Part shown: piece by piece, positions 51,507-53,147 of the stretch | Numbering within the stretch: the stretch's first letter is position 1 | How the letters are laid out: each line of letters opens with the position of its first letter | NCBI GenBank assembly: GCA_000165345.1 | Contig: CM000429.1 | Coordinates: forward strand, 384,001 to 448,000 | DNA length: 64,000 bases | Direction of reading: 5' to 3' | The notes under the pieces: model-generated | What the model saw: only the letters and a program-made list of their open reading frames with translations | What the model was told of the DNA's origin: nothing | Databases searched by the model: none | Made by a program: the position numbers and the translations under genes

Positions 51507-51968
51507 ATGTGCGAAACAACGTTCATTGGGAGAGCTAGCGATGGCCTAATTCTTACTGAGACTTGGGATGATTTAAGCTCCAACAGATCTCTGCAGAGTT
51601 ATAAGCACCAAGCTAAACAAATATTAAAAAGCATCGGGAATGATCAAGGAGTAGAAAAATGTTCTATTGATAGTGGAAATTATGTCTTCCACTACATTGT
51701 AAATGATGGTATTATTTATATGACTTTATCGGGAAAGTCATACCCGAAGAAGTTGGCTTTTTCTTTTCTAGATGAAATAAAAAGGTTATTTATTGAAGAA
51801 CTAGGGAGAGAATTTGCAAATAGAGATGAATTCAAGAGCCTGATTGATGCAATAGATAAGCCGTATTATTTCATAAAGTTTGACCGAATAATTCAACGAT
51901 GCAAATCCGAATATAAGGACCCAAACTCGAACAAGTCGCTACAAAAACTAAATGACTCGCTAATTGAG
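51507..51968 (+). CDS. SEC22: R-SNARE SEC22, exon 1 (longin domain)
   Basis: MCETTFIGRASDGLILTETWDD...YKHQAKQILKSIG...NYVFHYIVNDGIIYMTLSGKSYPKKLAFSFLDEI is collinear with the Sec22 longin domain. The exon ends GAG|GTATGT at 51969. Confidence 0.85.
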
Positions 51969-52021
51969 GTATGTTTACTACTTGTTTTTAACCATAATGC
52001 TCAAAAAAATTAACAATTCAG

Positions 52022-52240
52022 GTAACTAATATAATGAGAAGAAATGTGGATGATATTTTACTGAGAGGTGAAAATCTTAATGATGTTGAAAGAAAAGCCA
52101 ATGATTTAAAATTTGCATCCCTGGAATTTTCTAGAGCTGCAAAAAAGCTTTCATTGCATGCATTAATTCAAAAATATGCACCAATATTGGCCTTATCGGC
52201 TATAGTTTTGATCATCATTATATGGAAGCTTATTTTATAA
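52022..52240 (+). CDS. SEC22: R-SNARE SEC22, exon 2 (SNARE motif plus C-terminal TM)
   Basis: After a 53-nt phase-0 intron (51969..52021, GTATGT...TTCAG), the frame continues VTNIMRRNVDDILLRGENLNDVERKANDLKFASLEFSRAAKKL. This has the R-SNARE zero-layer Arg and a TM anchor, matching Sec22b NIEEVLQRGEAL.... Confidence 0.85.
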   Translation, partial: VTNIMRRNVDDILLRGENLNDVERKANDLKFASLEFSRAAKKLSLHALIQKYAPILALSAIVLIIIIWKLIL

Positions 52241-52433: not shown

Positions 52434-53147
52434 ATGAATTTTATCGTATCCCCAACAGAACAAGAGCTTTACAGCGAGTTAAGTTCTAAATATCCGAGCC
52501 TGCACATTTGCACTCAAACACCACAACTAAAAGGAGTTATGACAATACTTAGAGATGCAAACACTTCAAAAGAAGACTTTGTGTTTTACACAGATAGAAT
52601 ATGTAGAATTGTTCTTGAACATGCTTTAAACCTTCTTCCTTATGATTATAAGGAAATTAAAACCCCAAATGGAATCGAAGTCAAGGGAATTGCATTTAAC
52701 ACTCCCATCTGCGGCGTGAGCCTAATAGGATCTGGTGAAGCGATGGAGAATGCGCTTAGATTTGTATGCAGAGGATGTAGAATAGGGAAGGTGTTATTAA
52801 ATAACTCTTCTGAAAACGAATTTGACAACGCTATTTCTGCAGCATATGTAAAATTACCCGAAGATGTCTCAGAAAGAGTTGTAATCGTAATGAGCCCAGT
52901 GTTAGGAACTGGTAATTCACTATGTTGTTTGATAGAAGTGCTGATAAAGAACAATGTAAAAGAGAAAAATATTATTTGTATGGCACTGCTTTCGTCAAAA
53001 TTAGCAATCGAACGAGTTTTCTCACAATTTCCAGAAATCAGACTTGTAATCTCCTCAATAGATTATAATCTTGATGAAAACATGCAGGTTGTTCCTGGAG
53101 TTGGTAACTTTGGCGATAGATACTTTGGAATTAAATGTAGCAAATAA
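52434..53147 (+). CDS. Uracil phosphoribosyltransferase (UPRT) homologue with a non-canonical PRPP-binding loop
   Basis: Full-length collinearity with UPRT (TQTPQLKGVMTILRDANTSKEDFVFYTDRICRIV...NTPICGVSLIGSGEAMENALRFVCRGCRIGKVLL...VPGVGNFGDRYFG). The PRPP loop reads VVIVMSPVLGTGNS where canonical UPRTs have ...LDPMLATGGS. Confidence 0.82.
   Translation: MNFIVSPTEQELYSELSSKYPSLHICTQTPQLKGVMTILRDANTSKEDFVFYTDRICRIVLEHALNLLPYDYKEIKTPNGIEVKGIAFNTPICGVSLIGSGEAMENALRFVCRGCRIGKVLLNNSSENEFDNAISAAYVKLPEDVSERVVIVMSPVLGTGNSLCCLIEVLIKNNVKEKNIICMALLSSKLAIERVFSQFPEIRLVISSIDYNLDENMQVVPGVGNFGDRYFGIKCSK

Follow-up and report, generated by a model that had tools for sequence, protein, structure and literature searches.

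A stand-alone uracil phosphoribosyltransferase homolog of Cryptosporidium with a substituted active site

Uracil phosphoribosyltransferases (UPRTs; EC 2.4.2.9) are oligomeric, and their canonical eukaryotic forms are represented by Toxoplasma gondii UPRT and the yeast and Candida Fur1p proteins. Cryptosporidium has no de novo pyrimidine synthesis, and Striepen et al. in 2004 reportedly gave a UPRT (cgd1_1900), a uridine kinase-UPRT fusion (UK-UPRT) and thymidine kinase (TK) as the three pyrimidine salvage enzymes of the parasite. Here we examined cgd1_1900, the published name of a gene on chromosome 1 of Cryptosporidium parvum, within a 64,000-nucleotide (nt) stretch of assembly GCA_000165345.1 (contig CM000429.1, positions 384,001 to 448,000 of the forward strand), hereafter the window, from whose first letter positions are counted. 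The field counts this gene as one of two UPRTs. Having already been annotated as a UPRT, knocked out and screened, the gene, which a first-pass annotation of the DNA had singled out, is not an overlooked paralog; what is added here is a set of losses at its active site, and we found no remark on the missing residues of cgd1_1900 in the searchable literature. Judged from these substitutions, cgd1_1900 is probably not the ordinary pyrimidine-salvage enzyme that its label implies, although full fitness of the parasite clearly requires it.

The complete coding sequence of C. parvum Iowa II cgd1_1900 occupies positions 52434-53147 of the forward strand as an open reading frame (ORF) that is uninterrupted from ATG to stop and encodes 237 amino acids (aa) plus the stop codon. 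Its translation agrees residue for residue with EAK88408.1, deposited as ‘Fur1p like uracil phosphoribosyltransferase [C. parvum Iowa II]’, one of four independent C. parvum records in which the protein is identical. The Pfam family PF14681 (UPRTase) spans its full length (E 6.5e-61; 205.8 bits, the gathering cutoff being 27; positions 2-205 of a profile with 206), and the closest solved structure by sequence is T. gondii UPRT 1bd3, which aligns collinearly in HMMER (E 3.3e-63). The end-to-end family match and this alignment bear out the initial assignment of the ORF as collinear with UPRT. PF14681 is the only domain in the 237-aa ORF, in which no uridine-kinase (PRK) domain was found.

An AlphaFold2 model of the protein, built from a 29-sequence alignment, has a mean predicted local distance difference test score (pLDDT) of 90.4 and a predicted template modeling score (pTM) of 0.87, and its only weak internal stretch is residues 127-131 of a flexible loop (pLDDT <50). 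Foldseek matched the model to T. gondii UPRT structures with template modeling (TM) scores of 0.90-0.93 and root mean square deviations (rmsd) of 0.9-1.4 Å, the match to 1jlr having a TM score of 0.93 and an rmsd of 1.4 Å over 231 columns, and later matches were to C. albicans Fur1p bound to UTP and to bacterial and archaeal UPRTs. Crystals of the UPRT fold with regulatory nucleotides include T. gondii UPRT-GTP (1jlr) and C. albicans Fur1p-UTP (7rh8). According to the predicted model, the type I phosphoribosyltransferase (PRTase), or UPRT, fold is kept. In Pfam family, length, stand-alone organization and sequence identity (~42-43% in the structural alignment, TM 0.93), cgd1_1900 resembles the canonical eukaryotic enzymes, with which it also shares the RIGK motif, the TG-x-S phosphate loop and the FGDRYFG part of the uracil-binding hood.

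Substitutions at the active site

Residue equivalences given below use the natural numbering of the Bacillus caldolyticus (Bc) chain in the HMMER alignment, and residue roles are those assigned in papers on bacterial UPRTs and on the T. gondii enzyme rather than roles derived by mutating cgd1_1900 itself. The type I PRTase motif that binds phosphoribosyl pyrophosphate (PRPP), the definition of which includes acidic residues (PMC10380321), lies at aa 150-162 (52881-52919, forward strand) and reads VIVMSPVLGTGNS, its T. gondii UPRT counterpart being VMLLDPMCATAGS. HMMER places VVIVMSPVLGTGNS opposite WVMLLDPMCATAGS of T. gondii UPRT, column for column, and the same loop stands opposite LLDPMLATGGS in C. 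albicans Fur1p and IVDPMLATGGS in B. caldolyticus UPRT. Ser154 (AGC, 52893-52895) occupies the position of the PRPP-loop Asp, exactly as the first-pass annotation had read it, in a register anchored by the invariant Pro155, Thr159 and Gly160. An offset motif Asp was considered and ruled out, since these flanking Pro, Thr and Gly residues set the register, VVIVMSPVL contains no acidic residue and no Asp or Glu lies nearby. Within the same loop, Val156 and Gly158 stand in place of the Met and Ala that touch the base in T. gondii UPRT, and the 5'-phosphate-binding TG-x-S end is kept (GTGNS).

Three further residues, missed at first, are also replaced: Gly99 lies opposite Bc Arg79 (ILRAG), Asn124 opposite Arg104 (GLYRD) and Asn225 opposite Asp200 (GLGDAGDR). 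Gly99 (GGA, 52728-52730, forward strand) is at the site where the ‘(I/V)xRAGE’ motif has its PRPP-binding Arg, with LIGSGE paired with ILRAGI in the alignment. Asn124 (AAC, 52803-52805) takes the place of the Arg in the flexible loop, which spans aa 121-137 (LLNNSSENEFDNAISAA; 52794-52844, forward strand); because this loop has zero basic residues in the C. parvum protein, it holds nothing to stand in for the lost Arg. The equivalent residues of Mycobacterium tuberculosis UPRT, Arg77 (Bc Arg79) and Arg102 (Bc Arg104), have been assigned to PRPP binding, and Arg102 together with Asp198 (Bc Asp200) to catalysis, the role of the Asp being a proposed one (PMC3570474).

Asn225 (AAC, 53106-53108) replaces this proposed catalytic Asp, which is Asp235 in T. 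gondii UPRT, within the uracil-binding hood at aa 219-232 (VVPGVGNFGDRYFG; 53088-53129, forward strand). In the structure of T. gondii UPRT with 5-fluorouracil, D235 OD1 lies 3.2 Å from O2 of the base, and M166 and A168 of the PRPP loop contact the base (PMC10970046). The C-terminal uracil region, VPGVGNFGDRYFG at aa 220-232, had been passed over as unremarkable, a view that does not survive the alignment, given that its first Asp is the proposed catalytic residue. Apart from the Asp-to-Asn change at 225 the hood is conserved (PGVGNFGDRYFG), and P155, T159, G160, P221, G222, G224 and F226-Y230 are invariant in alignment A1.

Compared with canonical eukaryotic UPRTs, cgd1_1900 thus lacks both PRPP-binding Args (Gly99, Asn124), the acid of the PRPP motif (Ser154) and the hood Asp (Asn225), and two of its base-contact loop residues are changed, whereas the 5'-phosphate loop (TG-x-S/T) and the backbone uracil hood (PGxGxFGDRYFG) are present. 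The loop Asp had been correctly identified as lost but is one of four such residues, and the idea of a pseudo-enzyme is strengthened because three more active-site residues are gone.

Conservation in the genus and position in the family

We compared 13 Cryptosporidium ortholog sequences, three of them from further assemblies. At the sites of Arg79, Arg104, the loop Asp and Asp200, in that order, C. parvum, C. hominis, C. tyzzeri, C. meleagridis, C. ubiquitum and the three further assemblies carry G/N/S/N, C. sp. chipmunk genotype I carries G/S/S/N, C. canis G/H/S/N, C. felis and C. xiaoi G/N/N/N, and C. serpentis R/K/Y/N. Whether orthologs share the substitution had been raised as a check at the outset, and the loop Asp is missing in every ortholog examined (Ser, Asn or Tyr). 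Site 99 is Gly in 12/13 sequences and Arg in C. serpentis alone, and site 124 is N, S, H or K, while Asn225 is found in 13/13. Its presence in all sampled species indicates that Asn225 was fixed before they diverged, with the other three sites drifting. Variation within the genus at positions 99 (G/R), 124 (N/S/H/K) and 154 (S/N/Y) would be expected if those sites no longer matter.

The gene itself is constrained. The Nei-Gojobori ratio of nonsynonymous to synonymous substitution rates (dN/dS) is 0.065 between the C. parvum and C. meleagridis UPRT homologs and 0.047-0.074 in other unsaturated pairs of intestinal species; for the neighboring DnaJ gene, the C. parvum-C. meleagridis pair gives 0.185. 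The UPRT homolog is under strong purifying selection (dN/dS ~0.06), and a constrained gene with drifting catalytic sites is the pattern to be expected of a protein that still matters although its catalytic residues no longer do. We also scanned 50 canonical UPRTs for positions with a conservation of 90% or more that Cryptosporidium has lost, the canonical set having been picked for Arg, Arg, Asp-Pro and Asp, so that sites 99, 124, 154 and 225 are invariant there by construction. Of the 12 positions returned, seven belong to the active site (99, 123, 124, 154, 156, 158, 225), three lie outside it (182, 191, 233) and the other two fall at termini that align poorly, and 23/40 family-conserved positions are still invariant across the 13 Cryptosporidium sequences. 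With the losses lying mostly in the active site and 23/40 positions kept, the change is focused on the catalytic site.

These observations bear on whether cgd1_1900 is a decaying, functionless relic of an ancestral UPRT, as the lost catalytic residues, the variability of three sites and the viability of knockout parasites might suggest. The ORF is, however, intact and syntenic in every species examined, its dN/dS lies below that of the neighboring gene, more than half of the family-conserved positions are still invariant (23/40), and knockout parasites suffer strong depletion when they compete. Taken together, selection and fitness contradict a functionless relic, and we regard this explanation as highly improbable. 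Sequencing error or a pseudogene was also ruled out, by the four identical C. parvum records, the intact syntenic ORFs in five other species and the dN/dS of ~0.06.

To place cgd1_1900 among its relatives, an exhaustive HMMER search was made of 1.84 billion representative sequences, which returned 1108 relatives at E <= 1e-10, and residues were tallied in the best 150 of the 1108. Within this set the first Arg site (Bc Arg79) is Arg in 137 and Gly in 0, the loop-acid site is Asp in 115, Glu in 9, Tyr in 17 and Ser in 1, the second Arg site (Bc Arg104) is Arg in 72, and the hood Asp site (Bc Asp200) is Asp in 49, Asn in 31 and Glu in 17, with 32 unaligned; all four sites deviate in 3/150. The tallies indicate that the UPRT family already holds several non-canonical lineages. 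A Tyr-loop group includes a named bird ‘UPRT homolog’ (duck, P0153; loop VLLMYPILSTGNT, hood HFGQKYFG), an Asn-hood group includes an insect UCKL (P0074), and algal UK-UPRT domains have a hood Glu and the loop PVLGTGN(S/T), as in Cryptosporidium. The Cryptosporidium combination, with both Args and the loop Asp gone and the hood otherwise whole, fits none of these non-canonical groups.

Two other relatives are of note in their own right. The choanoflagellate Mylnosiga fluctuans (P0184, EukProt) has a Ser-Pro PRPP loop, ILLLSPIIYSGQT, and deviates at all four positions, an independent case of the same substitution. The P0041/P0190 cluster, of metagenomic UK-UPRT type and the second-best non-Cryptosporidium match of the exhaustive search (E 1.2e-53), carries GNFGDRYFG, as Cryptosporidium does, with both Args and the loop Asp intact, which hints that the Asp-to-Asn change can precede the other losses.

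Profile scores separate cgd1_1900 from canonical enzymes. Against the NCBIfam UPRT equivalog NF001097 (cutoff 114 bits) it scores 106.6 bits, below the cutoff, which T. gondii UPRT (169.6), the canonical protist protein P0040 (183.7) and a fungal one, P0011 (165.5), exceed by about 50-70 bits. Other intestinal Cryptosporidium species score 102-111 bits and C. serpentis 117.5, and the non-canonical relatives score 115.6 (algal UK-UPRT), 121.7 (insect UCKL) and 79.0 (duck UPRT homolog). On the bacterial profile TIGR01091 (cutoff 208.35) cgd1_1900 reaches 109.9 bits and falls below the cutoff, as do the T. gondii, P0040 and P0011 controls. A neighbor-joining tree was dominated by long-branch grouping, with cgd1_1900 at distances of 0.82-0.90 to both the T. 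gondii/Fur1-type and the algal UK-UPRT-type proteins, and group hidden Markov models with the diagnostic sites masked gave 232-241 bits for all groups, within 10 bits of one another, neither distances nor scores separating the two candidate ancestries.

The metazoan ‘UPRT homolog’ proteins (human UPRT, Drosophila krishah) resemble cgd1_1900 in their Asp-less PRPP loop and the loss of the second Arg, and C. serpentis (LMYPV) shares the Tyr of the duck loop. The first-pass annotation had drawn this parallel, which holds at the loop position (duck P0153; Tyr in 17/150) and breaks down over the rest of the site: in metazoan homologs the first Arg remains and the GxGDFGDR hood is gone (HFGQKYFG), whereas Cryptosporidium shows the reverse, although C. 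serpentis has Arg at the first site. The metazoan type has been described by its loop Tyr and by the absence of two glycines, or the GxGD part, from the uracil region (PMC4536494), and the uracil region of cgd1_1900 is instead full save for the Asp-to-Asn change. From these alignments the Cryptosporidium and metazoan losses look independent, with no evidence of orthology. In the C-terminal domains of UK-UPRT and UCKL proteins (plant and algal UKL, animal UCKL-1), the points in common are GNFGDRYFG, shared by cgd1_1900 and UCKL-type domains, the PVLGTGN(S/T) loop and VVPGVG, shared with algal UK-UPRT, and similar NF001097 scores, about 115-122 bits. These domains, however, form fusions with a uridine kinase and retain both the first Arg and the loop Asp, whereas cgd1_1900 stands alone and keeps neither.

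The occurrence of the PVLGTGN loop in algal UK-UPRT domains too is one of several points in favor of a changed chemistry or substrate, by which cgd1_1900 would be a phosphoribosyltransferase for another base or would carry a nucleotide-processing activity with no need of pyrophosphate binding. The Met-to-Val and Ala-to-Gly replacements shrink the base-contact side chains and enlarge the pocket near uracil C5, Val156 is present in 13/13 and Gly158 in 12/13 Cryptosporidium sequences, and conservation of the pocket argues for ligand binding. A PRPP-dependent transfer should nevertheless still need the pyrophosphate-binding Args and the loop acid, and we found no precedent for new chemistry in this fold family; the proposal is purely inferential, and we consider it improbable.

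At the locus itself, cgd1_1900 has a longin/synaptobrevin SNARE gene upstream and a DnaJ gene downstream, and the order SNARE, UPRT homolog, DnaJ, usually with a HECT gene next, recurs in C. meleagridis, C. canis, C. felis, C. xiaoi and C. serpentis. These flanks and the lack of a uridine-kinase domain confirm the description of a stand-alone gene, and the UK-UPRT/UCKL fusion architecture was found at this locus neither in the window nor in the five other species. The upstream SNARE gene (51507-52240, forward strand) carries a 53-nt GT..AG intron (51969-52021), and the ORF list splits the gene in two. An antisense ORF of 102 aa (52646-52954, reverse strand) lies entirely within the cgd1_1900 coding sequence and is most likely a product of chance, with no evidence of being a gene. 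No tRNA genes were detected in the 64-kb window (1-64000). In C. felis (GCA_014529505.1, L005 4001-5604), the deposited 408-aa model P0005 joins the longin SNARE and the UPRT homolog; L005 4903-5604 is a separate intact 233-aa UPRT-homolog ORF, so the P0005 fusion is probably a mis-merged annotation.

Knockout phenotype and possible function

Replacement of cgd1_1900 by mCherry yielded viable and transmissible parasites; the same laboratory later reported reduced selfing success of the knockout, suggested that growth or development might be impaired, and credited viability to ‘the second copy of uprt’. When eleven genes of pyrimidine salvage were put through a pooled CRISPR screen in vivo, the log2 fold enrichments for cgd1_1900 were -8.15 and -7.37, similar to those of ribonucleotide reductase (-9.9, -8.0) and the UK-UPRT cgd8_2810 (-9.2, -6.6), whereas the dispensable TK, DHFR-TS (dihydrofolate reductase-thymidylate synthase) and dCMP deaminase had positive values (PMC12368253). 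Because its knockout lowers selfing and is strongly depleted in pooled screens, the cgd1_1900 protein does something. The searchable literature yielded no enzyme assay of cgd1_1900 and no uracil, 4-thiouracil or 5-fluorouracil incorporation data for Cryptosporidium.

The other UPRT-like genes of the parasite were also sought. The C. parvum UK-UPRT (cgd8_2810 / AAS47700) was not identifiable among the best 150 of the 1108 representatives, and an AT-rich UK-UPRT considered as the parasite's own, P0187, proved not to be from Cryptosporidium. A peptide rebuilt from the published CRISPR homology arms of cgd8_2810, a base-inexact source, had no match in the word index, and a degenerate DNA pattern for DYNFDHPNSVDF had no match in the JGI metagenomes. 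The machine-read supplement tables of PMC12368253 lose homopolymer letters, giving cgd1_1900 homology arms of 47-48 nt versus 50 nt in the window, and are not base-exact. We considered and rejected cgd4_4460 as a third UPRT, as it is named UPRT in PMC7371110 but DHFR-TS in other papers (PMC6800313, PMC1779779). PMC7371110 reports ‘uracil phosphoribosyltransferase (cgd4_4460)’ to be absent from C. ryanae, so that any loss of a UPRT-like gene in C. ryanae is of doubtful identity.

Viewed as a whole, the half of the site that acts on PRPP has been dismantled, losing both Args for pyrophosphate binding, the loop acid that should hold ribose and metal, and the Asp proposed for uracil activation, whereas the half that holds UMP is kept in the TG-x-S phosphate loop and the GxGxFGDRYFG hood, which reads the base via backbone atoms. 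The most likely consequence would be that UMP is no longer made from uracil and PRPP at a useful rate. With the PRPP-acting parts gone and the UMP-holding parts conserved across the genus, we favor as most likely a UPRT fold with little or no catalysis left, which would continue to bind a uridine nucleotide or base and serve some non-catalytic purpose, and we put its chances at about even. The substitutions, the extent to which the genus shares them, the modeled fold, the purifying selection and the knockout cost are observed or published, and lost catalysis, kept ligand binding and a regulatory or partner role are what we infer. As a non-catalytic binder of uridine nucleotide or base, the protein could be a sensor, for instance, or pair as a subunit with a salvage enzyme such as the UK-UPRT cgd8_2810, and either the sensor role or the UK-UPRT partnership would be a plausible mechanism.

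There are analogies for such a fate. A second adenine phosphoribosyltransferase (APRT) isoform of T. brucei is said, in the title of a paper, to be kinetically inactive. Bacterial PyrR retains the phosphoribosyltransferase fold for nucleotide sensing or regulation. Its UPRT activity is described as only weak (PMC3570474). Unlike cgd1_1900, both belong to other phosphoribosyltransferase subfamilies, no RNA-binding or regulatory feature was seen, or tested for, in cgd1_1900, and the comparison is one by analogy only. A fuller scenario, which we offer tentatively, is that the only stand-alone UPRT was turned into a non-catalytic uridine-nucleotide or uracil binder before the genus radiated and that the parasite needs this protein to grow competitively in the gut, where it might be a sensor, for instance, or a subunit that regulates or complements UK-UPRT. 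On that scenario the ‘two UPRTs’ would not be redundant, the knockout phenotype would not be one of uracil salvage, and real salvage, if any, would rest on cgd8_2810 alone.

Several considerations weigh against a dead fold with retained binding. The inactivity of cgd1_1900 is deduced from sequence alone, and its interaction partner and ligand are hypothetical. Ser and Asn can still hydrogen-bond the ribose hydroxyls and uracil O2, a cost of knockout is equally expected from the loss of a real salvage enzyme in a parasite lacking de novo pyrimidine synthesis, and the field treats cgd1_1900 as a UPRT. Furthermore, Drosophila kri (krishah), with a similarly non-canonical site, is reported to sustain the in vivo incorporation of 4-thiouracil (PMC4536494), so that missing consensus residues do not prove inactivity.

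The kri result, the cost of knockout to a parasite that relies on pyrimidine salvage and the literature annotation, along with the conserved uracil hood and phosphate loop and the strong purifying selection, speak for the main rival explanation, namely that cgd1_1900 is still a working UPRT, in which a remodeled site, perhaps with the help of water, metal or partner-subunit residues, makes UMP and the knockout phenotype reflects lost uracil salvage. This explanation must nevertheless accommodate the joint loss of four residues with assigned PRPP-binding or catalytic roles, three of which drift in the genus, a C. parvum flexible loop with no basic substitute, and a score under an equivalog cutoff that canonical eukaryotic UPRTs clear by 50-70 bits. 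In addition, purified human UPRT, which likewise has an Asp-less loop, has been reported inactive (PMC4536494, PMC3570474). We judge a working UPRT to be possible but unlikely.

cgd1_1900 belongs to a known kind, that of conserved UPRT homologs with degenerate active sites, and the finding is real and somewhat stronger than first stated. Because Cryptosporidium has no de novo pyrimidine synthesis, the small number of salvage genes it has are regarded as drug targets, and cgd1_1900, besides being counted as a salvage enzyme, is a convenient locus in wide use for knockouts and insertions. Should the protein not be a UPRT, pathway maps with two redundant UPRTs would be wrong, the activation of 5-fluorouracil or 4-thiouracil expected to proceed via cgd1_1900 may fail, and the marked knockout cost in pooled screens would point to an unrecognized, possibly regulatory, role of a dead-enzyme fold. 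If true, this would provide an independent protist example for the poorly understood class of conserved, apparently inactive animal UPRT homologs, and knowing the answer would alter the reading of both the popular ‘uprt’ locus and Cryptosporidium pyrimidine salvage.

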